A DNA stretch of 64,000 nucleotides from a virus (Duplodnaviria; Heunggongvirae; Uroviricota; Caudoviricetes): IMG/VR virus record IMGVR_UViG_3300013426_000013, positions 61,580 through 125,579 of that record. One strand, 5' to 3'. This document shows, piece by piece, positions 16,947 to 45,457 of the stretch. Both the position numbers and the translations under genes were made by a program. Numbering within the stretch: position 1 is the stretch's first letter; every line of letters begins with the position of its first letter. The notes under the pieces are model-generated. The model worked only from the letters and a program-made list of their open reading frames with translations, was not told the origin of the DNA and made no database searches.

Positions 16947-17033
<87 letters not shown>

Positions 17034-17342: not shown

Positions 17343-17417
17343 TTTCGGGATCGACTAAAGGTAGGTCAGCACACTTTGACTGTGCTAAGGTTGGTTCAAG
17401 TCCAGCTCCCGAAACCA
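17343..17417 (+). tRNA. tRNA-Gln (anticodon UUG)
   Basis: Acceptor TTTCGGG/CCCGAAA, anticodon stem GCACA/TGTGC with loop CTTTGAC, T-arm GTTGG-TTCAAGT-CCAGC, encoded CCA. Confidence 0.7.
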
Positions 17418-22245: not shown

Positions 22246-22247
22246 TA

Positions 22248-23108: not shown

Positions 23109-23148
23109 TACTATAAACAATAATAAACTAATTGATGCTAGGTGCTTA

Positions 23149-23974: not shown

Positions 23975-24394
23975 GTGATGCAATTGGTTTTGGCAAAAGA
24001 AGAAATGAAGCAAGTGACAAAGTTGCGTAATTTGTTTAAAGGACTGTACGTTAGATGTTTCATGTCTATCGCAGTTGAAAACACTGATGTTGTTCGTGTG
24101 TTAAGTAAACAAAATCGAGCTACACAAGGAAATTGGTGGCGGGATCATCACAAAGCAAGTCAAGAACGTGAAATGTTAAATGTCTTTTATTTTAGTGACA
24201 GTGACAACGTAAGCATTGAATTAAAGGCAACTTTTGATAATAAAGAGTTTAATTTTTCGATTGTTGTCCCTATTAATGAATTAAGGCAAATTACAAAACA
24301 AACAAATTTAAGCGATTTAATTATTAAACCTGATTTTCATTGTGTTTTTGTTACTTTAAAAAATATTGGTGAAGTAGCTTTAGAAACTATTTAG
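23975..24394 (+). CDS. small protein, CTM family; ends IGEVALETI
   Basis: 139 aa with a canonical C-terminal motif. Confidence 0.55.
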   Translation: MMQLVLAKEEMKQVTKLRNLFKGLYVRCFMSIAVENTDVVRVLSKQNRATQGNWWRDHHKASQEREMLNVFYFSDSDNVSIELKATFDNKEFNFSIVVPINELRQITKQTNLSDLIIKPDFHCVFVTLKNIGEVALETI

Positions 24395-24403
24395 GTATGT
24401 GTC

Positions 24404-24709
24404 ATGATTGAACCTATTACAGAAAATTTGAGATTATTAATGAATTTGGTCAGTCAAAAGTTTTCGAACTTCGTTGATTGGAATGAGAAAGACGCTGCGA
24501 TTGATTCAAAATATTTGACCGTTAAAAATGTTTCTATAACAAATGGTTTTACAGGATTTGAACTAGATATACAAATCACATTGGCAGAGTTAATGCTAAT
24601 CACTGAAGATACAAAAGAAAATCAAATATTATTTGACTATAATAAAGAGTCTCATTTTCTTGAAGTGTCATTTAAAGATATAGGTGCGCAAACATTGGAG
24701 TGCGTGTAA
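24404..24709 (+). CDS. small protein, CTM family; ends IGAQTLECV
   Basis: 101 aa with a C-terminal motif. Confidence 0.5.
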   Translation: MIEPITENLRLLMNLVSQKFSNFVDWNEKDAAIDSKYLTVKNVSITNGFTGFELDIQITLAELMLITEDTKENQILFDYNKESHFLEVSFKDIGAQTLECV

Positions 24710-25059
24710 TGACTGTGTATGAGAAGTTTGAAACGCAAACAATGCAAATTGTTAAATCTTTAGATGGTAAAATTTTTAAAGATGAAAACGAATGTGAGTA
24801 CAAACTCGAAACTAAAGATGTTAAATATTCAATTGATTTAGTTGATACTTGGGCGGATTCTGATTTTTACTATATAAAGTTGTTTGCTGAAAGACAATAT
24901 TCTCTTTTGAAACAAAAGGAGATGTTTTATTTCAAAGTTTTGATTGATGGTTTTAACAATTGGCAAAAAGGAGATGTTTTAACTTTCAAATCTTGCAAGC
25001 GTCATTTCATTGATATGTCTATAGAAACTGTTGGGTGTGCATGCTTAAGTGAAATTTAA
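24700..25059 (+). CDS. small protein, CTM family; ends VGCACLSEI
   Basis: 119 aa with a C-terminal motif. Confidence 0.5.
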   Translation: MRVMTVYEKFETQTMQIVKSLDGKIFKDENECEYKLETKDVKYSIDLVDTWADSDFYYIKLFAERQYSLLKQKEMFYFKVLIDGFNNWQKGDVLTFKSCKRHFIDMSIETVGCACLSEI

Positions 25060-26815: not shown

Positions 26816-27733
26816 ATGAATTTCAATGCTTTTTTGAAGATTGACGAAATTAAAAACCTGTTTAAATGCCCTGAAAATGTAAAATATCATCCTGAAGGAA
26901 ATACAGGTGGCCATGTTGTGAAAGCATTGGAATGGCTTAATGTTAATTGTCCTTCTGAATTTAAGCACGATTGCTATATTGCAACATTACTGCATGATAT
27001 TGGTAAACCTTTAACAGAAAAATCTTTATTTCCTAAACATCCTAAACATGATGAATTAGGGGCTGATTTTATTAGTGAAAATGGTGGCTTCCGTAAAGAA
27101 GTAAAGGCTATTTACGGAGATGTTGATTGGTCTTTTGTTGAAAACGTTTGTCGTTATCATATGACTTTTTGGCATTTCAAAGATCGTAACAAACGCACAT
27201 CTAGCTTTTTAAAATTGTTGGAAGGTGTTGGTTATGAAAATATTGATAAATTTTTATGGTGTGTGTTTGCAGATGAGTGTTGTAATGATAATGTAAACGA
27301 TAAAAGATATGCGACATTGTTTCAATTGTGTAAAGACTTGTTTAAAGACTTGAAAAACATGTGCGACAAAGTCATAGAACCTAATCATAAATATAAACAA
27401 TGGAGAAATATGTATTGGGAAGCTAAAGTACGTGTATGTTCTGACATTGTCAATACGTTTAATAAAGAAGCCAAATTTGTTGTGTTTGATGATTTGGTTC
27501 AATCTTTTATGAATATGCTAAAGAAAAAAGAAGGCAGTCAAATTAGCAACGATTCAGTTTCAATAAACAAAGAAAACTCGACATTGTGGTTTAATGTTAA
27601 CAATGTCAATTATGTAATTGGAGTAGATGATTTAAAGAAATGCAATTGCCGTGTAATGACTGAACATTTGTTTGAATTTAAATTCAGCACTGATTTTAAT
27701 ATTTGGTTTGTAAAGCCTTTAGTAGAGTTATAA
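26816..27733 (+). CDS. HD-domain phosphohydrolase
   Basis: 305 aa with HPEGNTGGH ... IATLLHDIGKP (H ... HD ... signature of the HD superfamily). RBS GGAGAA. Confidence 0.65.
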   Translation: MNFNAFLKIDEIKNLFKCPENVKYHPEGNTGGHVVKALEWLNVNCPSEFKHDCYIATLLHDIGKPLTEKSLFPKHPKHDELGADFISENGGFRKEVKAIYGDVDWSFVENVCRYHMTFWHFKDRNKRTSSFLKLLEGVGYENIDKFLWCVFADECCNDNVNDKRYATLFQLCKDLFKDLKNMCDKVIEPNHKYKQWRNMYWEAKVRVCSDIVNTFNKEAKFVVFDDLVQSFMNMLKKKEGSQISNDSVSINKENSTLWFNVNNVNYVIGVDDLKKCNCRVMTEHLFEFKFSTDFNIWFVKPLVEL

Positions 27734-28116
27734 CCGTTATGTTTACATATAGTTTACTCTTCTACCATAGTGACGGCACAATAACAGGGCCCCACATTGA
27801 TGCTTTTTGTGAAACTATAAAGGGTTTGAAATGCAAATCTCATATTAAATTTGACGGGTGTAATTTAGCGACAATATTTGATACAGAAAAATTTTTTATG
27901 GATTCTGGTGAATATTATACTTTAAAAGCAAAGGTTGAAAACACAGAGAAACATATGTTTACGGTTGAAACTTTTTGTGTTGATAAAGATTGGTTTAAAA
28001 GTATTAATTGTTTTGACAATATGAAATTTAAAGTCATTTTGAAAACAACAACTAAAGGCAATTTACAATTTATAAATGAACAACCTATAGGTGAAATTAT
28101 TTTGGAAGATTTGTGA
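27703..28116 (+). CDS. small protein, CTM family; ends IGEIILEDL
   Basis: 137 aa with a C-terminal motif. Confidence 0.5.
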   Translation: MVCKAFSRVITVMFTYSLLFYHSDGTITGPHIDAFCETIKGLKCKSHIKFDGCNLATIFDTEKFFMDSGEYYTLKAKVENTEKHMFTVETFCVDKDWFKSINCFDNMKFKVILKTTTKGNLQFINEQPIGEIILEDL

Positions 28117-28501
28117 AATGAATATTGAAACAGCTAGAATAAATTTTAATAAAATCATGAATAAATTTTTAGGAACTGCAATAAAGTATACCGATCCTTT
28201 TTCACACAAGGAAAAGGCGATAAATTTTTTAAAACTAAAAGATGATTTTAATTTTGATGAGTGGATAAAGCATCAAATGGAACAGTTTCAATCACTTCCA
28301 CAGTTTAAAGATTGTTATGAGATTACATTGTATGGAAAAGACAAACATAACATTGAAAAAGCTTTTTCAATGTTTATAAAAAAAGATGCGTTGTTTAATA
28401 ATGCATCAAAATTAAAGTACAATTATGAATTTGTATTTGATTGTTTGTGCTGTTTTGTTTCAGATGATGGTATCGGCGCTAAAGTGTTAGAAGAAATTTG
28501 A
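28091..28501 (+). CDS. small protein, CTM family; ends IGAKVLEEI
   Basis: 136 aa with a C-terminal motif. Confidence 0.5.
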   Translation: MKLFWKICEMNIETARINFNKIMNKFLGTAIKYTDPFSHKEKAINFLKLKDDFNFDEWIKHQMEQFQSLPQFKDCYEITLYGKDKHNIEKAFSMFIKKDALFNNASKLKYNYEFVFDCLCCFVSDDGIGAKVLEEI

Positions 28502-28959
28502 TGATTTTAAAAGTTGTATATACAGTAATTTATATTTTACCTTCTATCGCAATGTTGTTTTACAGAGATGGATGGCAACCTTTTGCATTACTGCTACCTA
28601 TATTACCTATTTGTGTAATTGATTTTAGTTGGAAACATTGTACAAATTATGTCATTGTAAATAAAGTGCAAATTAGTTGTTCAAATCTATCAAGAGAAAA
28701 TGTTTTATATTCATCAATAAGCGATTTTTATAATAGGTTGTCAAATGTTTTACAAATAAACAAATATACATTGTTGACAACTAATTTAAGTTCATTCGAC
28801 AGATTTATGTTTAAATTGTTGTTCAAGCATGTAATTGTGAGTTGGTGTCAGAAACAATTCAAGGGTGAAATCAAAATCAGTTTTAGCGCACTTTATAATC
28901 AGCTTGTTTATAAAGTTGAAAAAGTTGAAATTGGAGAAGTTTGTTTAAATAGTTTTTAA
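28498..28959 (+). CDS. small protein with N-terminal TM helices, CTM family; ends IGEVCLNSF
   Basis: 153 aa with a hydrophobic N-terminus and the family C-terminal motif. Confidence 0.5.
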   Translation: MMILKVVYTVIYILPSIAMLFYRDGWQPFALLLPILPICVIDFSWKHCTNYVIVNKVQISCSNLSRENVLYSSISDFYNRLSNVLQINKYTLLTTNLSSFDRFMFKLLFKHVIVSWCQKQFKGEIKISFSALYNQLVYKVEKVEIGEVCLNSF

Positions 28960-28969
28960 AGGAATTAAA

Positions 28970-29596
28970 ATGTCTACAGAATATTTTTATGTTAAAGAGT
29001 CAACAAAAGAATTGTTTGATTTAGGTAATGGTGGTCACTATTATGATTTATATGAAACAGTTTTAAAAAAGATTAAATCATTTCAAAAATCAGGAACAAC
29101 TATTAATATAGTTAAAGAAAAACTTAAGCCAATCTTTCTAGAAGAGTTTAGTTATTTTGATCCTGATATAACAGATGATGATTCATATCTAAATTTTATA
29201 ATAAATAAGATTGTTCCGGCTCTTTTAAATTGGGTTGATGAAACAACAACTATTGTTGATGATTATAGTTTGATTACATCTGTTGAAAAGAAATACGGTA
29301 AAGACTTGTGTGAAAAGTTTTATGAAGAAAACCATTCAAGTTACGTAGATCATATTTATAAAACAGTTGGCTCAATTTATGAAGATGAAACTTTTGAAGA
29401 TGGAATAGTAGATCGTTCAGTTACTTTTGATCGAGTGTTAATAGAATTGAAAGCAGGAAAATCAGCATATCGAAAAAGTAAACCGAATATTATGTTCGGT
29501 TTGTTGCCAAATGGCTTGTTGTTAGTGAATAATCATGGAATGAGTTTAGCTAAAGTTGAAGATATCCTCGCGGATGATTGGATTGTTGTTGACTAA
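28970..29596 (+). CDS. hypothetical protein
   Basis: 208 aa with an RBS AAAGGAA. Confidence 0.5.
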   Translation: MSTEYFYVKESTKELFDLGNGGHYYDLYETVLKKIKSFQKSGTTINIVKEKLKPIFLEEFSYFDPDITDDDSYLNFIINKIVPALLNWVDETTTIVDDYSLITSVEKKYGKDLCEKFYEENHSSYVDHIYKTVGSIYEDETFEDGIVDRSVTFDRVLIELKAGKSAYRKSKPNIMFGLLPNGLLLVNNHGMSLAKVEDILADDWIVVD

Positions 29597-29642
29597 TTAC
29601 TTGTTTTTATATATAATGCTCATATAAAAAGGTTTAGTTGAA

Positions 29643-29951
29643 ATGAAAAACAATGATACTGAATTGACGCAATCTGTAAAAGACTTTATATTGGCAACAC
29701 CTTTATATGGTTATGAAGTTATGTCTGTTGATGCTGCAAATGCATCAACGAAAAAAGGTTATACTTGTATTGAAGTTACATTAAAATACAGTACGTCATT
29801 TAATGTTGTCGAAGCGATTGTTTGGATTAACAACAAATATCTTGATGAACGTTTATATAAATATTTTAGGTATCAGAAAATGGATACTAATAAGTTTCAT
29901 GATGAAATAGTTCCTATTGAAATTGGTGAAAATGCTTTAAACGAAATTTAA
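29643..29951 (+). CDS. small protein, CTM family; ends IGENALNEI
   Basis: 102 aa with a C-terminal motif. Confidence 0.5.
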   Translation: MKNNDTELTQSVKDFILATPLYGYEVMSVDAANASTKKGYTCIEVTLKYSTSFNVVEAIVWINNKYLDERLYKYFRYQKMDTNKFHDEIVPIEIGENALNEI

Positions 29952-29960
29952 AGGTGCTAC

Positions 29961-30143
29961 ATGATAGTTGAATTATCAGAAAAACAAATAATTAGTAAAT
30001 CGGAAAAAGAACATTTAAAACGTGTTGAGCAATTGAATAGCCTAGAGCATTTAAACAATATTGCACGTGAAGAGTTGAAAGAGTGTTTGAGAATCCATTT
30101 TGAATTGTTTGGCTTTAAAAGGTTAAAAAATGAGAAATTATAA
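29961..30143 (+). CDS. small coiled-coil protein
   Basis: 60 aa with an RBS AAAGGTG. Weak. Confidence 0.3.
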   Translation: MIVELSEKQIISKSEKEHLKRVEQLNSLEHLNNIAREELKECLRIHFELFGFKRLKNEKL

Positions 30144-30897
30144 TGATATTTATTTATCTATTTTAATGAATGAGATGCTTGCACCACGACCTTTAAAGTT
30201 TGTGTCTTTTAATAATTGCTTTAAGTTATTAAATATGTTCGTTTATGCAATAAAACATATTATAAATAATTGTTCAGATAAAATTATTGAAGGAAAGCAG
30301 AACCAAAAAAATCAACAATTGACAGGGACAATTAAAGGGTTAAAAATCAATATCATTTTTGAATTTGATACTGATGAAGATGATACTTTAGCAAGTTTTA
30401 ATCCTTTAGTGTATCCGTATGAATTGTGCATTAATTTAAAACATTTAAATCTTAATAATAAAGAAGATTTAATAGAATACATTAATTCAATAAAATTTCA
30501 AACAATTCTAGCACACGAAGTTTGTCATTTTCAGCAAACAATTGAATATGGTGTATCAGAAATGAAACGATTTATAAATATGGAAAAAAATATTAAAAAC
30601 TATCAAACATCACCAATTGAATTGGAAGCTTGTGTCTTTATGGTTTTAGAAAACGCTAAAAGAAACAATGTTACAATAAAAGATTTAAATGAGTTTAATG
30701 ACTTCGTTTCATCTTTAAGTGAAGATTATCTTAATTTGGCAAAGACATTTATTAGCAACAATCAAGTTGCTGTCAAAGCAATTTTTGAAAACAACGAATT
30801 ATTAGAAACGTTTAATGAAAATATTGATGAAACAGATGTGGTGATTCTCGGCCCTTGCGTCACCGTAGGCAAAAGAAAGCATGTAAAATGGTGGTAA
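30130..30897 (+). CDS. HExxH-motif protein (putative metallopeptidase)
   Basis: 255 aa containing TILAHEVCHFQQTIEYG. Confidence 0.5.
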   Translation: MRNYNDIYLSILMNEMLAPRPLKFVSFNNCFKLLNMFVYAIKHIINNCSDKIIEGKQNQKNQQLTGTIKGLKINIIFEFDTDEDDTLASFNPLVYPYELCINLKHLNLNNKEDLIEYINSIKFQTILAHEVCHFQQTIEYGVSEMKRFINMEKNIKNYQTSPIELEACVFMVLENAKRNNVTIKDLNEFNDFVSSLSEDYLNLAKTFISNNQVAVKAIFENNELLETFNENIDETDVVILGPCVTVGKRKHVKWW

Positions 30898-31229
30898 ATA
30901 CCAAGAATAAAAAGCTTGAACTGATTTATCAAATTTTAAATGAAAAAGAGTCAACATTTAATCTATATGATAACGAATATTACGTCAAAACATGTCATAC
31001 ATTTTCACTTGATAAAGAAAATAATGAGTATGTTGTCGCAGGTGCTATTTATTTAGATAAAGAAAGAGCTACGAATGCATCTGGCTACATTATAGTTCGA
31101 GTGACAAGAGAAGATTTAAAACAATTTTCTAAAACATTTGAAAAAGATGATTTGTTTTTAGAAACACATGGGTTGTCCATATTAATAAAAAGAAAGGATG
31201 TTGGAAAAGTTGTGCTAGATGTTATTTAA
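30855..31229 (+). CDS. small protein, CTM family; ends VGKVVLDVI
   Basis: 124 aa with a C-terminal motif. It overlaps the upstream gene in another frame. Confidence 0.45.
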   Translation: MRHRRQKKACKMVVNTKNKKLELIYQILNEKESTFNLYDNEYYVKTCHTFSLDKENNEYVVAGAIYLDKERATNASGYIIVRVTREDLKQFSKTFEKDDLFLETHGLSILIKRKDVGKVVLDVI

Positions 31230-34059: not shown

Positions 34060-34407
34060 ATGGGAAGAAAAGCTAAATATACACCTGAAGAAAGAAAAGA
34101 ACGTGCTAAAGAGTATCGTAAAAACTATTATAAGAATATGCCTGAAGAAAAGAAAGCAGAATATAGAAAACGTTTTTACGAATATTTGAAAAAGCGTCGG
34201 CAGAACCGTACTGAAGAACAGATCGCTAAAGACAAAGAAAAAAGTCATCAGAGTTATAAAAAGTATATTTCTGTTCCAGAAAATCGTGCAAAATCAAATC
34301 AGCGAGCAAAAGAGTATTATCAAAGTCATAAAAAAGAAATTTTAGAGAAACAGCGGCAACGTTATGTAAATATGACTTCTAAAGATAAAGATAAAGATAA
34401 AGATTAA
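34060..34407 (+). CDS. highly charged basic protein (Lys/Arg/Glu-rich)
   Basis: 115 aa, about 45% K/R/E, ending with a KDKDKD repeat. RBS GAAGGAA. Confidence 0.45.
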   Translation: MGRKAKYTPEERKERAKEYRKNYYKNMPEEKKAEYRKRFYEYLKKRRQNRTEEQIAKDKEKSHQSYKKYISVPENRAKSNQRAKEYYQSHKKEILEKQRQRYVNMTSKDKDKDKD

Positions 34408-34850
34408 TGCGATTGTTAATGCCGAACGAGTGGACAGCATCATTGTGTTCAAACAAAGTTGTAGTCAACCGTTTAATACAATATCAAAGTTCATCTGAAC
34501 AATACTTTTTAGATAGTACTAATGAACACTTTAAGAAGATTCTTAAGGTGATTCAAAGTCATTGCTATACATATATTGTTGAATGTTTAAAACAAAATTC
34601 TGGTGGTCGTTGTTGCAACGGCAAAAATACGTTTGTTCAAATTTGGGATATGCCAAAATGTCAAACAAGTATTAATTCTATTTGGGTACAAGTTTATACT
34701 AAAGGAAGACGTGCATATTATGCCCATGAAGATTGTTTTAAGAGGTCACATATTGCATTCGAAGAGTTGCGTTTCATTACTGATGAATACACAAAAACAC
34801 GATATATTGTTTTAAAAGAATGTGGTGAAGTTGTTTTGGAGTCTATTTGA
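34407..34850 (+). CDS. small protein, CTM family; ends CGEVVLESI
   Basis: 147 aa with a C-terminal motif (G at -8, L at -4, I at -1). Confidence 0.5.
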   Translation: MRLLMPNEWTASLCSNKVVVNRLIQYQSSSEQYFLDSTNEHFKKILKVIQSHCYTYIVECLKQNSGGRCCNGKNTFVQIWDMPKCQTSINSIWVQVYTKGRRAYYAHEDCFKRSHIAFEELRFITDEYTKTRYIVLKECGEVVLESI

Positions 34851-35804: not shown

Positions 35805-36470
35805 ATGTTTGACCAAAATACAGTTGTTCATTTTGAGAATGAAAATAAAGAAGATATCAAAAAAGTATTAGATGAATTGTTTGCATATGAAGAAACTCTA
35901 GAAGACAATTCGAATGTTAAGCTTGATTTGAAAGGAAAAAGTCTTGACACAATTGCTTTTGTTTTGAAAGAAGCACTGAATAATCCTGAATTAAAAAACA
36001 TTCAGTTGTTAACAAACGTATTGTGTCTGTTGAAGTCATATTTTACATTTGATTCCAGCTTTTTTGAATCTGAAGATATTTATGTTAATAAATCAGTTGA
36101 ATTGGTTGATTTGAAACGCCGTCTGAAAGATGACATCAATAAAGTTTCACGGCAAGTAGCTATTTATTTTCTGTCAATTTGTAGATCGTTGAACAAGGTT
36201 GAATATACTATGCTTGATTCATACAGGCCGTTGCCGAACCTTTACCATACACTCTTCTTGACAACAGATATGGTTACCATTAGCAGCATTTTATGTGATG
36301 TTAAAGATGGTTCTTTTTCTGAATGTTCATTGGTTCGAGATGCTAATTTATACTTTAATTCTATTATGAGTAAGTATCGTATTGGCAATGAAATGATGAA
36401 TGAATTCTTAAGACCAATCTTAAAACAGTTTCAGAAAGAAGACGGTGTAGAAAATGAAAAAGCTGATTAA
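35805..36470 (+). CDS. hypothetical protein
   Basis: 221 aa. Confidence 0.45.
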   Translation: MFDQNTVVHFENENKEDIKKVLDELFAYEETLEDNSNVKLDLKGKSLDTIAFVLKEALNNPELKNIQLLTNVLCLLKSYFTFDSSFFESEDIYVNKSVELVDLKRRLKDDINKVSRQVAIYFLSICRSLNKVEYTMLDSYRPLPNLYHTLFLTTDMVTISSILCDVKDGSFSECSLVRDANLYFNSIMSKYRIGNEMMNEFLRPILKQFQKEDGVENEKAD

Positions 36471-37110
36471 GTATAATGATCTAATTGAGTATGCTTTAAC
36501 ATATATTTCATCAGTTTGTGAAAACATTGATGGCATGAAGTCATCTGTTCCTGATGATGTTAAAAATGGTTATACACGCGTTCTTGCTAACAACGGTAAA
36601 CATTCTTTCACAATGGTAGTTTCTGATGGTACTGTTGCACAAGTTGCTTCTTCTACTGTTCGTTCTGAATTGACTAGCTTTTTGTCAACATATGGTGTAT
36701 ATTCAAAAGCAGGTACTTTGATTAATGCTAAAGGTGTTTTGAATTTCTTTAACTATTTAGCGTCCTTCATTAGTGGACATGTGTTTACTGTTGTAAATAA
36801 TGTATCGGGAAACAAGTGTTGTATTTATAAATCAGGTGCAGTTACTGTTTCAGGTGTTGCTAAATTGTCAGAAGAAATCAATTCTGATCCTGAACGCCAT
36901 GAAGTAATTTTTACGACAACACATAACGAATATAATCTGGCATCTTTAGCTGAAGCTTTGAAGAATGTGACAAGTGTTAAAAGTGTAAATACATTGATTA
37001 ATTATGCATGTTCATCTTCATCATCTTCATCAAGTTCATCTTGCAGTTGTTCGAGCAGTTCAAGTTGTTGTAGTTCATCTTCTTCATACATTGTCTATAT
37101 GATGATTTAA
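36454..37110 (+). CDS. hypothetical protein with C-terminal poly-Ser/Cys tract
   Basis: 218 aa. The C-terminus reads CSSSSSSSSSSCSCSSSSSCCSSSSSYIVYMMI, encoded by an imperfect (TCN)n microsatellite. Confidence 0.45.
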   Translation: MKKLIKYNDLIEYALTYISSVCENIDGMKSSVPDDVKNGYTRVLANNGKHSFTMVVSDGTVAQVASSTVRSELTSFLSTYGVYSKAGTLINAKGVLNFFNYLASFISGHVFTVVNNVSGNKCCIYKSGAVTVSGVAKLSEEINSDPERHEVIFTTTHNEYNLASLAEALKNVTSVKSVNTLINYACSSSSSSSSSSCSCSSSSSCCSSSSSYIVYMMI

Positions 37111-37120: not shown

Positions 37121-37681
37121 ATGAATATTACATATAGCAACATCACAACAACAATGCTAAATAAGTTGATAGCAATGTGTGCTAATATCAATAATTATGG
37201 CAACATTGACGCTTGTTTTAAAGCAGGTTTTTCTGTCAATGTAAAGGTACCTCATACATATACTGCTCCAGGCTCTGGCGGTAGGGTAGAATACGTACCT
37301 ATTTCAAATTATTCATTGACAGGCAATGCGGTTCCGCAACAAACCGCTGCAAATTTAACAAATGATTATAATGCATTTATTGCAAAATTAGGTTTAAATT
37401 TGAATGCAAAATGTACTGTTAACGGTATATTTTATTTGTTAGAAAATATTGTAGAATTTGCTAAAAGCAATATTTTTTTCGCAACTAGCATATATACAGG
37501 CAATAAATGGGTTGTTTATATACCTTCTAACGAATCTGTGCGTGTACACAATGCATCTGAACTGTCTGATGATATCGTAAGAGAAAACCCTGTCACTAAA
37601 ATTATTGAAGAGTATGTAACCGCAATTCGTAATCGTATTCGTGCATACCCAGCTATATATACATTTAAGATTGTAAAGTAG
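37121..37681 (+). CDS. hypothetical protein
   Basis: 186 aa. Confidence 0.45.
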   Translation: MNITYSNITTTMLNKLIAMCANINNYGNIDACFKAGFSVNVKVPHTYTAPGSGGRVEYVPISNYSLTGNAVPQQTAANLTNDYNAFIAKLGLNLNAKCTVNGIFYLLENIVEFAKSNIFFATSIYTGNKWVVYIPSNESVRVHNASELSDDIVRENPVTKIIEEYVTAIRNRIRAYPAIYTFKIVK

Positions 37682-37692: not shown

Positions 37693-38331
37693 ATGAAAAA
37701 GTTTAATCTGAAATTGGGAAATAACTTTTGTCCTTTTTGTGGAAGTGAATTAACATATAACGATGAATATAAAGTAGTTTATTGCAAAACATGTAAAGAA
37801 AATGGACATACTGTTCAGTTTAAATATAAAGATGATCCGCAAGAAGCTTTTGATTATGCCAATACACGTAATGGTGAAAATGAGCTTTTAGAAAAGTTGC
37901 AAGACCTTTATGCATACTTAAAACAGTTAGGTATTGAAGGCCAGAATCTTGAAGATATTTCTGTGGCATCTGAAGGTGAATTGCCAAACAATGGTTGGAT
38001 TATCACTGAAGAAGCTGTTGCATTGCCTTGCGAAGAACCTCATGATGAAATGTATTCGCATTTAGTTACAGACAAAACCATTAATTTATCTGATCGTCAA
38101 GAAGTCTGCAATGTCATTCATTGTATTAATGTTACATATGTAATGAAAGTCCTTGACATATACATTCCAAAAAGATATAATGCAAAACAGAAAGAAGTTT
38201 TAACAAAGGTTTGCTCAAAGTATCCGAAAGATACTAAAATTGAAGTCGAATATTTGACAGAAGCTAAAGGCAAACAGTTTGAAACTTTTGATGGGTTAAG
38301 TGACTTTTTACTATTTTTGGATACAATCTAA
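37693..38331 (+). CDS. zinc-ribbon protein
   Basis: 212 aa with an N-terminal CPFCGSEL ... YCKTCKEN CxxC-CxxC ribbon. It directly precedes the radical-SAM array. Confidence 0.5.
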   Translation: MKKFNLKLGNNFCPFCGSELTYNDEYKVVYCKTCKENGHTVQFKYKDDPQEAFDYANTRNGENELLEKLQDLYAYLKQLGIEGQNLEDISVASEGELPNNGWIITEEAVALPCEEPHDEMYSHLVTDKTINLSDRQEVCNVIHCINVTYVMKVLDIYIPKRYNAKQKEVLTKVCSKYPKDTKIEVEYLTEAKGKQFETFDGLSDFLLFLDTI

Positions 38332-39194
38332 TGGATATCAAACCAATCACGGAATTTCTTCTTTGGGATAATTGCAATAACAATTGTAAGTTTTGTTTTC
38401 AACGGAAGAATCCAAGATTGTTTTCATTAGAGGAACAAGAACAAATTCTTGACAATGTGTTAAGGTTTCTTAATTCAGATGAATATATAAAAGGAAGTCA
38501 TGTACTCGTTGTTGGCGGTGAACTATTTGATCGTGATCGCGGGTTCATGCTTCCTTTTTTTGAACAGATTATTGAAAAAATGTTGTCTGACGACATTGAT
38601 ATTCTGTATTTGAATACGAATTTGATTTACGATCAAACATATTCAACAATGTTGAAACCTGTTTTAAAAATGTTCGATGCAAATAGTCTGTTTGACAGAT
38701 TAAAGTTCACAACATCTTTTGATATTGCCGGAAGGTTTAAAACGAAACAGGCACGTTCATTAGTATTGTCAAACCTATTGTTGTTAAAAGATGATTTTCC
38801 TAATCTTCGAACTGTTGTTAACATCATCTTAACAAAACAGTTTTGTGAAAGTGTTATCAATGAAAAGTTTGACATCTTTCATTTCATGGAATCGTTTAAT
38901 GTTAATACAAATCTAATTCCATACATTGTGTTGAATAAAGAGTTGTGTGCTGATAGAGAAACGATATTTGAAGCTTTAAGGAAGATTAATGAACAGCACC
39001 CTGAATATATCAGACAATACGTAGATAATATGGATTTGAGACATAAAAGGTATCTGTATGCTTGCTATCCAGATAATTTAAAATTGTGCAGTTGTGATGA
39101 TTCAGAATGTGGCCATTCTGTAAACTTTAAGAAATATAGCGATGACCATGAAGCATGTTTTGTTTGTGATTTAAAGAGAGTTTTTGATCTATGA
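38331..39194 (+). CDS. radical SAM enzyme, tandem paralog 1
   Basis: 287 aa with N-terminal NCNNNCKFCF (CX3CX2C [4Fe-4S]/SAM motif) and VVGGELFD (GGE SAM-binding motif). C-terminal cysteine cluster CSCDDSECGHSV ... CFVCD. Confidence 0.7.
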   Translation: MDIKPITEFLLWDNCNNNCKFCFQRKNPRLFSLEEQEQILDNVLRFLNSDEYIKGSHVLVVGGELFDRDRGFMLPFFEQIIEKMLSDDIDILYLNTNLIYDQTYSTMLKPVLKMFDANSLFDRLKFTTSFDIAGRFKTKQARSLVLSNLLLLKDDFPNLRTVVNIILTKQFCESVINEKFDIFHFMESFNVNTNLIPYIVLNKELCADRETIFEALRKINEQHPEYIRQYVDNMDLRHKRYLYACYPDNLKLCSCDDSECGHSVNFKKYSDDHEACFVCDLKRVFDL

Positions 39195-40147
39195 CTAAAG
39201 TAAACACAAATGTAGTAGATTGTGGTGAACATCGTTTTCTACAATTTAATTTATGGAAAGATTGCAATAATAATTGTGAATTTTGTTTTTATCGTGGTCA
39301 CAAATTGTTATCAAATGAAAAGAAAATTTCATCAATCAATTTTGTTAAAGAAAGATTGTTGGATTTGGAAGAATCTGATTTCTATAATGAAATTGGTTTC
39401 ATTGGTGGTGAGTTTTTTGATAATCAGATTGAAGATGAATCTGTGAAAAAGGCTTTTTACAAATTATTTGATATTTTAAAAGACAAACGAGAGCGCGGAA
39501 AGCTTGACCGTATTTATATTACAACTAATCTGATTTTTGATTCGAACAGATTGTTGAGACCGTTTCTTGACTACTTAAAAGAATTAAATTTATTAGATAT
39601 CACATTGTTGTGTACTTCATATGATTTGAAGTATCGGTTTCATAATGAAAAAGCATTACAGTTGTGGCAAACCAATATGGTTGAATTGTCAAAAGATTAT
39701 AACACAATGATTCATACAGAGATTATTGTGACGCAAGCATTTATTGACGCTGTAATGAAGGGAACATTTAATATTGAAGAGTTCTGTGAAAAATACAACA
39801 CACGTATTGATTATATTGAACCATCTTCAGGGTTTTATTTTTATGATAAAAAAGAGTGTGAGAAGGAAGTTAAAGACTTCTTCCCAAAACGTGAAGATTT
39901 CTTAAACTTTATTCAATATACAGCAATTGATAACCATTGGATTGATTTAACAAAATTCTTATCAATGCGCATTCGTTCTGATACGTTATATTGTCATTTA
40001 AAAGGACAGTGGCGAAAATTAGAAGGTCGTCGATCTCAATACATTTGTCCAACTTTAGGTTTGTATAATGTGACATATGAGAATGGTTATTGTGATTCAA
40101 AAGAGTCAATGGTTGAAGATGTTAATGCATTTTTAGGTAGTGTTTAA
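39191..40147 (+). CDS. radical SAM enzyme, tandem paralog 2
   Basis: 318 aa with DCNNNCEFCF and FIGGEFFD. The C-terminus differs (YCHLKG ... YICPTLG ... YCDS). Confidence 0.7.
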   Translation: MTKVNTNVVDCGEHRFLQFNLWKDCNNNCEFCFYRGHKLLSNEKKISSINFVKERLLDLEESDFYNEIGFIGGEFFDNQIEDESVKKAFYKLFDILKDKRERGKLDRIYITTNLIFDSNRLLRPFLDYLKELNLLDITLLCTSYDLKYRFHNEKALQLWQTNMVELSKDYNTMIHTEIIVTQAFIDAVMKGTFNIEEFCEKYNTRIDYIEPSSGFYFYDKKECEKEVKDFFPKREDFLNFIQYTAIDNHWIDLTKFLSMRIRSDTLYCHLKGQWRKLEGRRSQYICPTLGLYNVTYENGYCDSKESMVEDVNAFLGSV

Positions 40148-41079
40148 TGGGAAAAATGGTGCAATATTCGATGTGGTCTAATTGCAGCAATCATTGTGAT
40201 TTCTGTTTAATTCGTGACCATCATCACTATACGAAAAAAGAGCAGGTTGCTAATATTCGTAGGATTCGCGAAAACATCAAGCATGTTGATTGGCAAAATG
40301 AATTTTCATACGGAATTTCTTTATTAGGTGGTGAATTGTATTTCATTACAGATAAAGAAGTGCAAGATGAATTCATGCTGTTAATTAATGATATCATTGA
40401 TAATATTCTGTTAAAAGTTGATAATGAATTCTGTCGATATTCATCCGTTACAAATGGCTTGTATGATCCAACGTTTCTTTTTCGTGTAATTGATGAAATT
40501 AAAAACCGTGCAGGTATTGAAAAGGTTGATATTAACTTTTCATACGATTTGAAATACAGATATCATTCTGAAGAAAGAAGAAAACTTGCTTTAGAAAATA
40601 TTAACAAATTTCATGACCGATACAACTATCGTGTTGGTGTTCAGATGATTGTTACACAACATTTGATTAATTTATGTAAATCAGGTGAATTTAATGTAGC
40701 CGAATTTGTTGAAAAAGAAATTCCTGGTTGTGTGTTGTCATTGTTGTACCCGCACCCTGTTCAGACAGGAAATAAACTCCCAGATTTTTTCTTTAAACGT
40801 GAAGATCTGTTTTGGTTTGTCGATTACTTAAGAGAAAATTGTCTTGATACGTATTATAATTTTTTGTATAGTACAAAAAATTCCGGAACTTTTAAATATA
40901 CAGGGTTCCTTGACAGAACATCTAAAGGATTAAAACACCTTGATCAACAACCAACTTTATCTGATGGTAAAGAAGAGTTAAGTGAATGCGGACATTCTGT
41001 TTTGTATAAATGCTATTCTGATAGTAATGACTGTATGTTGTGTGATTTGGAATTACTAGAAGCGGATATTAATTCATGA
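40147..41079 (+). CDS. radical SAM enzyme, tandem paralog 3
   Basis: 310 aa with NCSNHCDFCL and LLGGELYF. C-terminal ECGHSVLYKCYSDSNDCMLCD. Confidence 0.7.
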   Translation: MGKMVQYSMWSNCSNHCDFCLIRDHHHYTKKEQVANIRRIRENIKHVDWQNEFSYGISLLGGELYFITDKEVQDEFMLLINDIIDNILLKVDNEFCRYSSVTNGLYDPTFLFRVIDEIKNRAGIEKVDINFSYDLKYRYHSEERRKLALENINKFHDRYNYRVGVQMIVTQHLINLCKSGEFNVAEFVEKEIPGCVLSLLYPHPVQTGNKLPDFFFKREDLFWFVDYLRENCLDTYYNFLYSTKNSGTFKYTGFLDRTSKGLKHLDQQPTLSDGKEELSECGHSVLYKCYSDSNDCMLCDLELLEADINS

Positions 41080-42056
41080 ATACTGAAATGAACAATAGAC
41101 AGGAATGCCAATTTGAAGTTTGGACTGAATGCAATTCTAAATGTGTCTTTTGTTATTTAAGTACAAATAACATCAAAACTTTAGATGAAATTAAAATCAG
41201 GCAAATGAATAAAATCATTGACAGCATGAATGAACCTGATTTTTGCAAAAAGTTTAATAAAGTAGCATTTATTGGTGGTGAATTTTATCAAGGACAATTG
41301 GCTAATCCTGAAGTCAAATCCAAATTTATGGAAATGATGGATGTTGCTGCTAAATTGTTGAATGACGGTAAAATTAATGAAGTCTGGACATGTGCAACTT
41401 TAACCATTGGCGACCAAAAAGATATGTATGAAGTGTTGAAGAAATTCAATGATATATCAAAAGTTTGGGTGTTGACATCCTATGATACAATTGGAAGATT
41501 CCATACACCTAAAATGAAACAAACATGGCTCGACAATATGCAAAAGCTGCGTGATACATATAAAGATATTAAAATCAATATCACATCTATTCTAACAGGT
41601 GATTTTATTGATAAATATCTTGAAGGTACTTTAGATTTATGGGAGATTGCTAACAAATATCAGGCTGCTGTTTTCTTGAAACCTGCTTGCCCTATTGACC
41701 GTAATGAAAAGTCACAATATACAAAAGAAGAAACGAATCAAATTATTCCAAACTTCTTTCCAACACGTGACAAATTTATTGAATTTCTATATAAATTTAG
41801 AATGAATGAACCTGAATTTATGTATGATAAATTGTTCAATATGAAATATCGCAGCGATTATTTGTATAGATTTGAAGAAGGTGAAATGCACTGTTCCCAT
41901 CGTGTAAAGGAAACACAGCAAGAATTTTATGATAAACAAATTGCCGACAATGTTGTTAATAAATGTGGTCATAGTTCACAATATCAAATCTATTTAGATA
42001 GCGAAGAGTGTGCAGTTTGTGATAAAGAAATGATTAAGGAAATGCTAAATGATTGA
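41076..42056 (+). CDS. radical SAM enzyme, tandem paralog 4
   Basis: 326 aa with ECNSKCVFCY and FIGGEFYQ. C-terminal CSHR ... NKCGHSSQY ... EECAVCD. Confidence 0.7.
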   Translation: MNTEMNNRQECQFEVWTECNSKCVFCYLSTNNIKTLDEIKIRQMNKIIDSMNEPDFCKKFNKVAFIGGEFYQGQLANPEVKSKFMEMMDVAAKLLNDGKINEVWTCATLTIGDQKDMYEVLKKFNDISKVWVLTSYDTIGRFHTPKMKQTWLDNMQKLRDTYKDIKINITSILTGDFIDKYLEGTLDLWEIANKYQAAVFLKPACPIDRNEKSQYTKEETNQIIPNFFPTRDKFIEFLYKFRMNEPEFMYDKLFNMKYRSDYLYRFEEGEMHCSHRVKETQQEFYDKQIADNVVNKCGHSSQYQIYLDSEECAVCDKEMIKEMLND

Positions 42057-42987
42057 ATCTATTCTAGAAAAAGTAGCGTTTAACAGTGCTGAATTTGCAT
42101 ATTATAAAGAAGCATTAAAGAGTTATAATGCAAAAGAACTGATGTCTGAACGTGATTATGTATCTGTAGACGAAACTTTAAAAAAGTTTTTACCTTGTCA
42201 AATTAATGATGATTATCATTTCACATTTTCTACTACAGCAACAGATTTAATTAAACAGTTGTTTGCAAAATATGTTGATGATGAAACTTTAGTTTTGACA
42301 ACAAATAGCGAACATCCAAAAGTTCAAGAAATTCTAAAGAAATGTAAAAATGTTGTTAAGGCTTTTGATAAAGAAACATTGCAGCAGTTTACAGTAGACA
42401 AGAAATATAAACGTGTTTTTATTTATATGATTGGTACAATGTGTGCAACAGGTCATATTGTATATGATCAAGAATTTGAATCAATCATTGAACGTGCGAA
42501 AGCGTCAGGAAAAGAAGTAATTACAGTTATTGATGCCGTTCAGGAATTGTTTTTGTTATATCGTGATTATAATAAATTCGATTATGTTATTGGAACAGCT
42601 CATGCCTTAATCCCAGAATACAACGTTGGATTGTTACTATCAAAAGATAATTCAATTGGGAAACCTTTAGCAATTGCTCAACCTTTTGTTACAATGCTGA
42701 ATTGGTTGTTGAAACGAAAAGAGTATCTTTATCAATTTAATACCTATATGAGTATGGAATTTGGAAATACTCGCAACACTCAATTTCATTTTGATTTTGG
42801 TATTAGTCACCTGTTTTTTATTAAAACTAGAAATGGTGAATTTAATCAAATGCAGGAAGAAGACACTGTAAGAGATAATATTGATAATGTTGGCGTACTG
42901 TTTAGAGGTTGTTGGTCTGTTGTAGATAAAAACAATTTTAACAATCTTTTTCAAACAACAAAATTTATTGTTGATGGGAATTTATAA
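42049..42987 (+). CDS. cysteine-desulfurase-like protein lacking PLP lysine, paralog 2
   Basis: 312 aa with TTNSEHPKV, IDAVQELF and DYVIGTAHALIPEYNVGLLLS, the same K-to-A substitution as paralog 1. Confidence 0.55.
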   Translation: MIESILEKVAFNSAEFAYYKEALKSYNAKELMSERDYVSVDETLKKFLPCQINDDYHFTFSTTATDLIKQLFAKYVDDETLVLTTNSEHPKVQEILKKCKNVVKAFDKETLQQFTVDKKYKRVFIYMIGTMCATGHIVYDQEFESIIERAKASGKEVITVIDAVQELFLLYRDYNKFDYVIGTAHALIPEYNVGLLLSKDNSIGKPLAIAQPFVTMLNWLLKRKEYLYQFNTYMSMEFGNTRNTQFHFDFGISHLFFIKTRNGEFNQMQEEDTVRDNIDNVGVLFRGCWSVVDKNNFNNLFQTTKFIVDGNL

Positions 42988-43076: not shown

Positions 43077-44423
43077 ATGATAACATTGAAAATTAAATAT
43101 ATTGCAGAAAGGGCATCTGATAATCAGGTGATAGCTGATTATCAGATGCAGTATAATAATCTTCTGCATTTATTCTATAATAGATTAAAGGATGGTACAT
43201 CTGAAACAAAATGTAAACATTTACAATTCAATAACCTTGATTTAATGAAATCTTGGTTTAGACAATCTTGTGTGAAAGATGCTTCATTCTTGTTAAAGAA
43301 GAATGAGGAAACAATCTTATTTGGTGGAAAGTATCTTTTTGAACAAAGATTTAGACATAACATTTCAAAGGAAGAATTTAAAGAAAGAAGATTAGTTCCA
43401 TTGTGTTCAATTGGTGAAGGCAGATGTAATGGAAATAGATTCTTCAGATTGTCTGAAGATTGTTATTCAGTCATATTTAGTCCTATGTTAAAACAAAAGA
43501 CGAAGTTAAAACTCATTGGTGTTGGTAATAGGATTAAAGTATTAAAGAAATTATATATTCACCAACAATTAAAAGATACACCAATTACTTATAAATTGGA
43601 TAAGAAATTTGTATATATCTCATTTGATGAATCTATCTTACGAGATAAGATTGTTAAACCAATATCCAACAGAATATTTTCCATAGATATGAATCCCAAT
43701 TACATCGGATGGTCAGTCGTAGACTTGAAAGAATCTGATGAATTCAAGGTTGTGAATTCAGGTGTAATATCACTGAAAAATATCAACGATGTTGAGTTCA
43801 AATTTAAGAAATTAAAATTACCTTCAACATCCACAGAAAGAAAACATCTGAACAATAAACGCAACTATGAAACATTGGAAGTATCAAAGTTTCTTGTCGA
43901 TATATCTAAACATTATCATTGTGAGTGTTTTGCTATTGAAGATTTGGTTATCAAATCCAAGGATAATTATCAAGGAAAGAATTTCAATAGACTTATAAAC
44001 AATAATTGGAATAGAAATAAACTAGTCAATAACTTAAGAAAAAGATGTAATATATTCGGTATTAAATTTGTAGAAATATCTCCACAATATTCATCTGTTA
44101 TAGGCAATTTAGTTTACAGGGAATTAAGATTACCTGATATGGTTTTATCTTCTATTGAGATCAGTAGAAGATGCTATGAATTTAATCTTCAATACATAAA
44201 GAAGATTAAAGCTAAAACGAAGAATGTGATCTTTCCAGATTTAACAGAATTACTATTAGACAAAGTAAAACACTCGTTGGAAGAAGTAAAGTGCTTTGTG
44301 GATTTTGTGAGTTGGAAACAGATTCATTCAGAGTTAAAGAAATCTAAACTTAGATATAGATTTCCTCTTGACGAAAGAGTCTTTAAGACTAAAACCTTAA
44401 GGTTTATTAATGTTTTTATATGA
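43077..44423 (+). CDS. TnpB/OrfB (IS200/IS605)-like protein, truncated, lacking zinc finger and RuvC-III (TldR-like, probably nuclease-dead)
   Basis: 448 aa. The N-terminus MITLKIKYIAE ... NNLLHLFYNRL resembles the TnpB N-terminus. RuvC-I is FSIDMNPNYIGWSV and RuvC-II is CFAIEDLVIKSKDNYQGKNFNRLINNNW ... GIKFVEISPQYSSVIGN (compare TnpB IAIEDLNVKG ... W ... PxYTSQxC). There is no CxxC ... CxxC finger and no D-x-D-x-NAA motif downstream. Confidence 0.55.
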   Translation: MITLKIKYIAERASDNQVIADYQMQYNNLLHLFYNRLKDGTSETKCKHLQFNNLDLMKSWFRQSCVKDASFLLKKNEETILFGGKYLFEQRFRHNISKEEFKERRLVPLCSIGEGRCNGNRFFRLSEDCYSVIFSPMLKQKTKLKLIGVGNRIKVLKKLYIHQQLKDTPITYKLDKKFVYISFDESILRDKIVKPISNRIFSIDMNPNYIGWSVVDLKESDEFKVVNSGVISLKNINDVEFKFKKLKLPSTSTERKHLNNKRNYETLEVSKFLVDISKHYHCECFAIEDLVIKSKDNYQGKNFNRLINNNWNRNKLVNNLRKRCNIFGIKFVEISPQYSSVIGNLVYRELRLPDMVLSSIEISRRCYEFNLQYIKKIKAKTKNVIFPDLTELLLDKVKHSLEEVKCFVDFVSWKQIHSELKKSKLRYRFPLDERVFKTKTLRFINVFI

Positions 44424-44454: not shown

Positions 44455-45420
44455 ATGAAATTAATTGCTAATTGGTTGAACAGTTTCAACTACTCAAAAG
44501 AAGAGCTTGCTAAATTGACTAGCATACGTGATTCTGAACAAATTGTTGAAGATAATTTTGAAGAAGAAAAAAATAGAACTTTTTCTATGCTTCCATTCAA
44601 TAGCTTTACGCATAAAGAATTATCAGTGGATACGTGTGCTACAAACATTATAAATAAATTGTTTGATAAATATGTTGACGATGATACTTTAGTTATTACT
44701 ACAGGTAGTGAACATCATTCTGTTAAAAATAATTTTAAGAAATGCAAGAATTTAATTCATTTTGTTTGTCGAGGTGAGATTCGTAAAGATATAGACATTA
44801 TAAAAGAAATCAAACCTTTTAAAAAGGTATTCATTTATATGATTGCTTTAAGCGTTGGTGATACACATTATTTAAACAATTGTATTATTGAATGGTTGCA
44901 ACAAATTTTAAAAGAAAACAATAAACAGTTTGTTACTGTATTGGATGCTGTTCAAGAACTATTTCTATTGCCACGTGACTACTCTATTTATGATTATGTA
45001 GTAGGTACTTCACATGCTTTGATTCCAAATTATGATATGGGTATGTTATTTGGTAAATCAGACTTTTCTTATAAAGCAGGAAATTGGTTGAAAGATTTTA
45101 ACGATTGCATGTCAATTTTATTAAGAAATAGAGACAAACTCTATCAATTAAATGTAATTATGAGGCAGCATTTTGCTAAATTTACAACATTTGATAAAGA
45201 CTTAATTGATTCAAGTCGAGCGCCATACGTTTATAATTTATGTGACTATAAAAAACGTTTAGAAGGGTTAAATGATGTAGATTATGAGCACGGGGCAATT
45301 GTCCCGGGTGATTATACACCTGTAACTTTTCGAGCCTGTCCTTTCCTTGCACATCAAGAAAAGTTTATAGATAGGATACAACAAATAGACAATATTCTTG
45401 AAATAGATATTGGCAATTAA
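44455..45420 (+). CDS. cysteine-desulfurase-like protein lacking PLP lysine, paralog 3
   Basis: 321 aa with TTGSEHHSV, LDAVQELF and DYVVGTSHALIPNYDMGMLFG (Ser at the Lys position). Confidence 0.55.
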   Translation: MKLIANWLNSFNYSKEELAKLTSIRDSEQIVEDNFEEEKNRTFSMLPFNSFTHKELSVDTCATNIINKLFDKYVDDDTLVITTGSEHHSVKNNFKKCKNLIHFVCRGEIRKDIDIIKEIKPFKKVFIYMIALSVGDTHYLNNCIIEWLQQILKENNKQFVTVLDAVQELFLLPRDYSIYDYVVGTSHALIPNYDMGMLFGKSDFSYKAGNWLKDFNDCMSILLRNRDKLYQLNVIMRQHFAKFTTFDKDLIDSSRAPYVYNLCDYKKRLEGLNDVDYEHGAIVPGDYTPVTFRACPFLAHQEKFIDRIQQIDNILEIDIGN

Positions 45421-45424
45421 AAAC

Positions 45425-45453
45425 AAAGGCTGGAATTAAAATTTCCAGCCTTT
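45425..45453. terminator. bidirectional rho-independent terminator
   Basis: AAAGGCTGGAA ... TTCCAGCCTTT hairpin between convergent genes. Confidence 0.6.
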
Positions 45454-45457
45454 ACTA

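Follow-up and report, generated by a model that had tools for sequence, protein, structure and literature searches.

What the four radical S-adenosylmethionine (SAM) enzymes encoded one behind another in a huge gut phage might act upon is the question raised by the locus considered here. The locus lies in a stretch of 64,000 nucleotides (the window; IMG/VR record IMGVR_UViG_3300013426_000013, positions 61,580 to 125,579), a 64-kb part of the genome of a gut phage of ~314 kb, in which a preliminary description made from the letters alone had reported four tandem, divergent radical-SAM paralogs. Huge gut and rumen phages devote 8-15 kb to 4-10 radical-SAM enzymes. Judged by their sequences, the paralogs are the four core classes of a previously undescribed, phage-restricted radical-SAM branch, and the branch looks like a descendant of SPASM/twitch-type peptide maturases. 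The reading favoured here, which stands about an even chance of being correct, is that this battery of enzymes modifies the C-terminal tail of a neighbouring protein, B, in the manner of a ribosomally synthesised and post-translationally modified peptide (RiPP).

Within the window the four open reading frames (ORFs) are present on the plus strand as reported: rS1 (38331-39194, 287 residues), rS2 (39191-40147, 318 residues), rS3 (40147-41079, 310 residues) and rS4 (41076-42056, 326 residues). They form part of a co-directional plus-strand run, from a gene for a Zn-ribbon protein through the NifS-like gene N2, in which starts and stops overlap by 1-8 nt. The four proteins are mutually homologous and as divergent as had been claimed, with pairwise blastp identities of 23-31% (E 3e-13 to 2e-32). 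The N-terminal motif W-x-x-C-(N/S)-x-x-C-x-F-C-(F/L/Y), i.e. the CX3CX2C of radical-SAM enzymes, and the GGE(L/F)(F/Y) motif ~40 residues past it read as claimed in all four paralogs. A C-terminal cysteine group, C-G-H-S...C-x-x-C-D, is found in rS1 (CSC...CGHS...CxxCD), rS3 (SDGKE...CGHSxLYxCYxDxDxCxLCD) and rS4 (CGHS...CAVCD) and has been lost from rS2; the preliminary description had given the group as E-C-G-H-S in three of the four, which is right as to the three proteins but not as to the first residue in rS4, where E is replaced by K.

Poor conservation of the cysteine triad among homologs had been named in advance as the observation that would count against these being radical-SAM enzymes. 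The triad is conserved: among 126 homologs encoded on other phage contigs, 125 have CX3CX2C and 125 have GGE. The C-terminal Cys/His group is kept throughout the rS1, rS3 and rS4 classes, with 3-4 Cys and 1 His conserved, and is missing from all 27 rS2 orthologs, which retain the surrounding Y-x-D-S-D...M..DV.

Against family models, the paralogs score at or below the margins of what is known. For Pfam PF04055 (Radical_SAM; gathering score 29.5 bits) the scores are 31.9 (rS2), 27.5 (rS4), 25.7 (rS1) and 22.2 (rS3), rS2 being the sole paralog above the threshold. The top NCBIfam match of all four is the viperin model NF038283, at 14.5-21.6 bits and over residues 4-74 only, the equivalog cut-off being 180 bits over full length; none of the four therefore qualifies as a viperin. 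Faint NCBIfam matches to NrdG, HxsC and PapB models were also obtained. Scores for TIGR02491/TIGR02495 (NrdG and glycyl-radical activases) are 13-18 bits against cut-offs of 126-131; a confident placement among housekeeping radical-SAM enzymes, the other outcome held in advance to tell against the description, was thus not obtained, the NrdG scores falling far below cut-off. Neither did any paralog combine the 349-bit equivalog score of TIGR03942 with the sulfatase-type C/S-x-P-x-R target that marks anSME. No match to the SPASM models (TIGR04085/PF13186) was found for the four window proteins in the Pfam and NCBIfam scans, and in place of the seven-cysteine SPASM motif they carry only C-G-H-x(4-8)-(C)-x(6-9)-C-x-x-C. 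Profiles of the four paralogs and of the rS3 orthologs, searched against PDB sequences, recovered no solved radical-SAM enzyme at E up to 1-5. The paralogs fit none of the known radical-SAM subfamilies; the preliminary description had been unable to place them by eye, and the family models and PDB profiles bear this out.

Assignment to the radical-SAM superfamily itself appears sound on motifs and on predicted fold. The AlphaFold2 model of rS3, made with 41 orthologs (pLDDT 91.9, pTM 0.89), is a partial (beta/alpha)6 TIM barrel of radical-SAM type. Its fold neighbours, with their scores, are anSME 4k36 (15.0, 254 residues aligned), ChlB 9gm3 (14.3), viperin (13.9), GDGT-MAS (13.7), HemN (13.6), SkfB (13.5), SuiB (13.2), NifB (12.8), CteB (12.8) and MoaA (12.7). 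ChlB is a synthase of multiple three-residue cyclophanes (PMC12912966, references 51-52). Using Foldseek against the PDB, the peptide epimerase EpeE came first by E-value and viperins first by TM-score (0.54/0.58), while the BFVD viral fold library gave distant radical-SAM matches only. In the model, then, the nearest folds are mostly those of enzymes that mature peptides or proteins; viperin, which acts on nucleotides, is the exception.

The family extends well beyond the window. In a profile search 988 proteins without a name were recovered, corresponding to 988 enzyme clusters at 90% identity; rS3 orthologs, 52-94% identical, account for 118 of the 120 best matches. The family was found on about 38 gut or rumen huge-phage contigs; relatives of rS3 are encoded by 25 IMG/VR contigs (16-287 kb) and by 8 contigs of gut or rumen metagenome-assembled genomes (MAGs) of 10-284 kb, four of them of 245-284 kb, the MAG contigs probably being phage contigs binned with bacterial genomes. 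Among GenBank phages (50,697 records) no tblastn match was found for rS2 or rS3. The lineage of the window is itself listed in 84 blocks of a public assembly collection, with contigs of ~314 kb; an identical copy of protein C, a paralog of B, occurs in those 84 blocks, on contigs of up to 314 kb. Copies number 4-8 per locus and sort into four orthologous classes, an arrangement which, at the level of sequence, is consistent with four sequential steps or four specificities. Of these classes, rS3 is the most conserved, rS1 shows 36-52% identity in other phages, and rS4 is frequently duplicated. In one rS4-class gene (L004, 10919-12940) an intein with LAGLIDADG motifs interrupts the CX3CX2C itself, between the second and third cluster cysteines (CNSRCKY|C...VHN|CYLG), the third cysteine serving as the +1 extein residue. 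The exact placement of the intein within the cluster motif suggests that the site matters to the phage. Long rS4-type ORFs are also present in L037 (9750-11972 and 14990-17074).

The likely ancestry of the branch can be read from accessory genes in related loci. In six of these (L008, L013, L017, L031, L032 and L033) a BLAST-detectable relative of the family, with the family core motif TSYD..RF, lies next to or inside the module of linked genes described below. The three copies that were scanned carry a true SPASM domain; TIGR04085 scores 29.4 against a cut-off of 27 in two of them (L008, L017), and the best full-length matches of the L017 relative are the anSME, HxsB, PapB and DarE models. 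When the rS1, rS3 and rS4 classes are aligned with the SPASM-bearing relatives, the cysteines of CGHS and CxxC coincide with SPASM cysteines, by which the family looks like a trimmed offshoot of SPASM-type peptide maturases. Methylthiotransferase genes of the MiaB/MtaB/RimO family are embedded in 8 loci; the module of the window has none. They form an adjacent pair with the SPASM relative in L008, L031, L032 and L033 and occur alone in L004/5, L026 and L027, while L013 and L017 have the SPASM relative alone. Those of L027 score 183-184 bits for TIGR00089 and TIGR01579, below the equivalog cut-offs, and have UPF0004 and Radical_SAM domains; those of L004/L005 are truncated. The pairing of a SPASM maturase with a MiaB/RimO-type enzyme looks like tailoring.

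To see which other genes travel with the enzymes, every ORF no more than 10 kb from the array was clustered, unsupervised and with no prior labels, for 30 sources. The radical-SAM family occurs in all 30 (153 copies), a protein A in 28, a B/C family in 27 and the NifS-like N family in 19, and every other family in at most 12. Gene order and orientation vary between loci, yet these four families stay linked, and the linkage persists through duplication of the whole module in L008, L010/11, L013, L025/26 and L029. The synteny in metagenomic phages that the preliminary description had proposed to look for is thus present, A, B/C and N being conserved with the radical-SAM genes. In contrast, homologs of the Zn-ribbon protein (37693-38331, plus strand, 212 residues, with a Lar-like N-terminus and weak Lar/Zn-ribbon matches) occur in only 4/30 sources, and this protein is a lineage-specific accessory. 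No name for any of the four module families was found in any source searched, and the literature searches, together with a targeted reading of the Jug-phage paper, yielded no published description of the module.

Proteins A, B and C are encoded on the plus strand just upstream of the interval first described. Protein A (35805-36470, 221 residues) is mostly helical and has no Pfam, NCBIfam or PDB match. Protein B (36454-37110, 218 residues) consists of an N-terminal domain and a Ser/Cys tail. Protein C (37121-37681, 186 residues) is a tail-less paralog of B; it aligns over the whole N-domain of B, ending where the tail starts, and adjoins B in most loci. The B/C profile has no known homolog and no significant match among known families or in the PDB; an exhaustive HMMER search places the family in 344 clusters at 50% identity.

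The tail is the most distinctive feature of the module. In the window it comprises residues 186-218 of B (37009-37107, plus strand), reading CSSSSSSSSSSCSCSSSSSCCSSSSSYIVYMMI-COOH. Generally, the tail begins with Cys, continues with 15-35 Ser interspersed with a few Cys, and ends at the C-terminus with x-[FYI]-[IV]-[AGV]-[YFW]-[MFILQ]-x-[ILMV], represented by x-F-I-A-Y-M-x-I, for a total of 25-45 residues. It is present on 47 of 153 B/C sequences examined; L036 apart, each locus whose upstream sequence reaches far enough has a tail-bearing copy. Outside its terminal heptad, which is far more strongly conserved, B has 25-35% identity between phages. The serine codons of the tail are a mixture of TCN and AGY, and the window tail is identical across 13 full-length cluster members with differing N-domains. 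Mixed codons and a pattern fixed within the lineage mark the tail as a selected protein feature and not a slippery repeat, and by them a microsatellite origin is ruled out. No clear link was found between the variant of the tail (AYM versus AYFN) and the methylthiotransferase or SPASM accessory genes. The window also holds an array of 10 tRNA genes (14032-17417), among them tRNA-Ser(GCT) and tRNA-Ser(TGA), which read both codon boxes of the tail (AGY and TCN); this correspondence may be a coincidence.

The association of tail and enzymes holds in the reverse direction as well. A search of IMG/VR for the DNA pattern of FIAYMxI followed by a stop gave 22 matches, 12 of them with a Ser/Cys tract. 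Of the tract-bearing matches, the ten with enough flank all adjoin radical-SAM genes, one of them on a contig not found via rS3, and the remaining two are on contigs known to carry radical-SAM genes. The chance matches lacking a tract adjoin radical-SAM genes in 0/10 cases. Consistent with the RiPP arrangement, in which a precursor is encoded beside its maturase, the candidate precursor B is linked to the enzymes in 27/30 sources.

What is proposed as to function draws on sequence, predicted structure and gene linkage. The genes A, B, C, (Zn-ribbon), rS1, rS2, rS3, rS4 and N form a conserved operon with the enzymes as its core, carried by huge phages from anaerobic communities of gut and rumen. 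The CX3CX2C of each enzyme would bind a [4Fe-4S] cluster, at which SAM would be cleaved to give a 5'-deoxyadenosyl radical, and the radical would abstract hydrogen from residues of the tail of B, the target being the Ser/Cys tract and possibly the triplets F-I-A and Y-M-x. Candidate outcomes, going by the nearest folds, are conversion of Ser/Cys to formylglycine, Cys-to-carbon thioether formation, epimerisation, or cyclophane formation on F-I-A / Y-M-x; in the tail Ser and Cys replace one another freely, and either of them would yield formylglycine. In rS1, rS3 and rS4 the C-terminal three cysteines plus histidine may make up an auxiliary metal or Fe-S site, one that rS2 would have lost. The terminal heptad could act as a docking element, being so much better conserved than the rest of B. 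Protein A and the tail-less C might serve as chaperone or adaptor, and N as a non-canonical pyridoxal phosphate (PLP)-fold accessory. A further step, to which a fairly small chance is given, is that the tract becomes a new, enzymatically made polymer segment on a phage protein. Such a segment could be a run of formylglycine, thioether cross-links arranged as a ladder or, once N has acted, a tract bearing amines; huge gut phages might use it as part of the virion or tail fibre, or as a factor in infection.

The N proteins require separate comment. Three NifS-like paralogs had been reported downstream of the array. Two are indeed there: N2 (42049-42987, plus strand, 312 residues), a NifS-like protein of putative PLP fold with no Schiff-base lysine, and N3 (44455-45420, plus strand, 321 residues), its lysine-less paralog (41% identical to N2, 43% to N1), with a TnpB-like gene between them. 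The third, N1 (21280-22245, plus strand, 321 residues), lies 16 kb upstream of the array. The report that they are lysine-less was correct, the position of the Schiff-base lysine being occupied by an invariant alanine. The alignment of 17 N sequences shows ...ATxxI..LF..YVDDDTLV.T...EH..V..., VLD-A/D-V-Q/H and DY-V-I-G-T-A-H-A-L (in N2, VIDAVQ...DYVIGTAHAL); T-x-H-A is invariant in 17/17, there is an invariant Arg near the C-terminus, and no Cys is invariant. Set beside the class-V motifs of IscS/SufS, D-A-x-Q and S-x-H-K, with a partial alignment to 1ecx, N has Ala for Lys. Three residues invariant in the PLP fold, Asp, His and Arg, are retained. The best PDB match of the N profile is the NifS-like 1ecx (E 0.053), Pfam Aminotran_5 (PF00266) matches 2/17 members (best E 1.2e-5), and the cysteine-desulfurase models TIGR01977 and TIGR01979 give E 0.004-0.02, below the family cut-offs. 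Lacking both the Schiff-base Lys and a conserved Cys, N is not a canonical desulfurase, and a true NifS desulfurase is ruled out on those grounds; that N is a derivative of the PLP fold is a weak but consistent reading of its sequence. N1 directly precedes a QueC-like PP-loop gene (22248-23108; SGGYDS and a C-terminal Cys cluster; TIGR00364 E 2e-6, N-terminus only), past which lies an RNase T-type exonuclease gene (23149-23913). The N1/QueC-like/exonuclease block (21280-23913) may be a separate sulfur- or adenylation-type module.

Several observations weigh against modification of the tail of B by the enzymes. The AlphaFold2 model of B is poor (pLDDT 49.7) and its fold is not predicted, from an alignment that was shallow, two word-seeded searches for B/C homologs having given 7 proteins each. 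Genes that match tail or tail-fibre PHROGs adjoin the module in 12/30 loci, a hint that B may be virion-associated, and B could be a structural protein merely neighbouring the enzymes. In L036, a water-buffalo rumen MAG contig of 245 kb (JAFZWP010000001.1) with 8 radical-SAM copies over 16 kb, none of A, B/C and N lies up to 10 kb away; this is the only exception to the linkage. An RRE/PqqD-like domain, a leader protease and an exporter were sought in A, B, C, the Zn-ribbon protein and the enzymes and not found. N1 adjoins the QueC-like gene and not the module. The fold neighbours of rS3 are all distant (TM ~0.45-0.58), and viperin, which modifies nucleotides, has both the top TM-scores and the best, very weak NCBIfam matches. 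The MiaB/MtaB/RimO family acts mostly on tRNA, by which the accessory genes count on the same side.

These last points feed the rival that survives best, namely that the battery modifies nucleic acid or nucleotides (DNA hypermodification, as the preliminary description had also suggested for phage DNA or tRNA, modification of tRNAs of the phage itself, or a viperin-like nucleotide product), with A, B and C as unrelated, for example tail-fibre-associated, neighbours. Besides the viperin TM-scores of 0.54/0.58 and the viperin model being the best, far sub-threshold NCBIfam match for all four paralogs, it can draw on the methylthiotransferases in 8 loci, an HD phosphohydrolase in the L001 module, the QueC-like PP-loop gene after N1 and the 10 tRNA genes of the window. 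However, the viperin matches are confined to the 60-residue cluster-binding N-terminus, at 14-22 bits against 180, and the SPASM-bearing relatives match peptide maturase models. The module has no conserved transglycosylase (DpdA/TGT), kinase, glycosyl- or aminoacyl-DNA transferase or other nucleic-acid-handling gene. As RimO illustrates, the methylthiotransferase family can act on proteins too. The two-way linkage of B tail and radical-SAM genes would be left without explanation. Action on nucleic acid or nucleotides is accordingly judged unlikely, though with an appreciable chance.

It is quite improbable that the enzymes make a small molecule or metallocofactor, with B as a scaffold or carrier (pearlin-like, or as with NifB/HydG) and N handling an amino-acid or sulfur precursor. 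Cofactor pathways typically combine several radical-SAM enzymes with PLP-fold proteins, the Asp, His and Arg that N retains would suit such a role, and Cys residues are scattered through the tail. But N has neither the Schiff-base Lys nor a conserved Cys and is not within 10 kb in 11/30 sources, the conserved genes include no release enzyme such as a tRNA-dependent ligase or a protease, and among relatives with known family matches those nearest in sequence are peptide maturases.

A slim chance is left to the enzymes modifying other proteins, such as small proteins of the window, tail fibres or host proteins, the tail of B then being a flexible linker with a docking strand. The small proteins in question are a family of ~18-19 ORFs of 100-150 residues (window 420-5716, 23975-25059, 27703-31229 and 34407-34850) ending in (D/E)-[IV]-G-[EA]-x-[VAT]-L-[ENK]-x-[ILF], e.g. 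...EIDIGESVLESF. Their number in the window, about 18-19 paralogs with the IGExxLxxI ending, and the tail or tail-fibre PHROG genes abutting the module in 12/30 loci favour this account, and poly-serine linkers are known in bacterial proteins. Only 1 of the ~19 paralogs lies within 1.5 kb of the module, however, most being 5-35 kb off. No small-protein family is conserved beside the module in the other 29 sources, and the IGE-tagged proteins are rejected as substrates for that reason. Were the tail a simple linker, its exact Ser/Cys pattern would not be kept within a lineage, and the occurrence of tail-bearing B only beside these enzymes would go unexplained. Of the earlier suggestion that the small tagged proteins are modified in a RiPP-like manner, the RiPP-like role remains the best reading, while those proteins, unlinked to the array elsewhere, drop out as its object.

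That the paralogs are housekeeping activases (NrdG, PFL-AE) with glycyl-radical partners elsewhere in the genome is barely credible and effectively excluded by scores and architecture: weak NrdG matches (TIGR02491 at 14-18 bits; phrog_626 for rS3) and an NrdD gene 5 kb upstream of the L001 module can be cited for it, but the scores lie far under the 126-bit cut-off, the proteins have 290-330 residues and an extra C-terminal domain where activases have ~150-250, there are 4-8 copies per genome in four conserved classes, and NrdD/PFL is not conserved near the module.

Additional features of the window bear on the extent of the locus and on its surroundings. The TnpB-like gene of IS605 OrfB type between N2 and N3 (43077-44423, plus strand, 448 residues; TIGR01766 30.2 bits) is a mobile insertion splitting the two and no functional part of the module; a DNA search of the region against GenBank phages matched this gene alone, at ~66% similarity, in Lak Prevotella megaphages. 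IS605-type and resolvase genes are present in related loci at different positions. A hairpin with a 14 bp stem at 45422-45456, a terminator-like site between N3 and a convergent gene, is, by its sequence, the probable end of the transcription unit. A promoter scan gave sites rarer than in shuffled sequence. Elsewhere lie genes for an RNA ligase/polynucleotide kinase-phosphatase fusion (6009-8276; phrog_8238, E 3e-154) and for an HD protein similar to the C-terminal half of a CCA-adding/repair enzyme (26816-27733); with the tRNA array they suggest a tRNA repair toolkit. A family of proteins of 417-603 residues has members at 18774-20096 (minus strand), 61272-62525 and 62611-63909 of the window and at 157-1968 of L025; the last matches PHROG tail-protein families, and its N-terminal MATQLKLRRGT... 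is taken to be a motif of tail-fibre type.

Should the tail of B prove to be the substrate, the module would represent a new virus-made protein modification open to direct test, and would supply new radical-SAM reactions on poly-serine, the simplest substrate possible. Were the tract a polymer segment of the kind described, both the class of post-translational modification in viruses and the radical-SAM chemistry behind it would be new. The analysis also gives a concrete handle for finding function in a large block of 'hypothetical' jumbo-phage genes.

In kind, the proposed modification of the B tail resembles radical-SAM peptide and protein maturation. With the SPASM/twitch maturases (anSME, PapB, CteB, SkfB, SuiB, ChlB, EpeE/YydG) the battery shares the barrel, CX3CX2C, GGE and an extra C-terminal cysteine domain, as well as a gene position adjoining a protein with a peculiar C-terminal low-complexity segment, and some modules contain SPASM-bearing relatives of the family. 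It differs in having no sequence-level match to any solved radical-SAM enzyme, in keeping only C-G-H...(C)...C-x-x-C (rS2 none) and in the absence of an RRE domain; it consists of 4-8 phage-encoded paralogs, and its putative substrate is a folded protein of ~200 residues and not a short peptide. Viperin (RSAD2 and its prokaryotic counterparts) is alike in size and in the N-terminal motif CN..C.FCF and has the top TM-scores, but has no C-terminal Cys/His group and is a single-copy host antiviral enzyme. The multi-radical-SAM RiPP systems (HxsB/HxsC; proteusin/polytheonamide) likewise place several paralogs beside a repetitive or low-complexity precursor target. The matches of the battery to the HxsC and HxsB models are weak and far below cut-off, however; the module target is poly-Ser/Cys and not HxS repeats or a long mixed core, and the module, found in phages and not bacteria, has no B12 domains, leader protease or transporter. 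NifS/IscS/SufS and N share the order ...T..EH..V...D-A-V-Q...D-x-x-x-x-T-x-H-... and the invariant C-terminal Arg, but N has Ala for Lys and no conserved catalytic Cys and is ~80 residues shorter. The likeness to MiaB/MtaB/RimO is held by the accessory genes of the 8 related loci and not by the module of the window. What is new by comparison with these systems is a phage-encoded set of at least four paralogs with a trimmed auxiliary domain, a lysine-less PLP-fold partner, and a putative substrate of ~200 residues with a poly-Ser/Cys tail.

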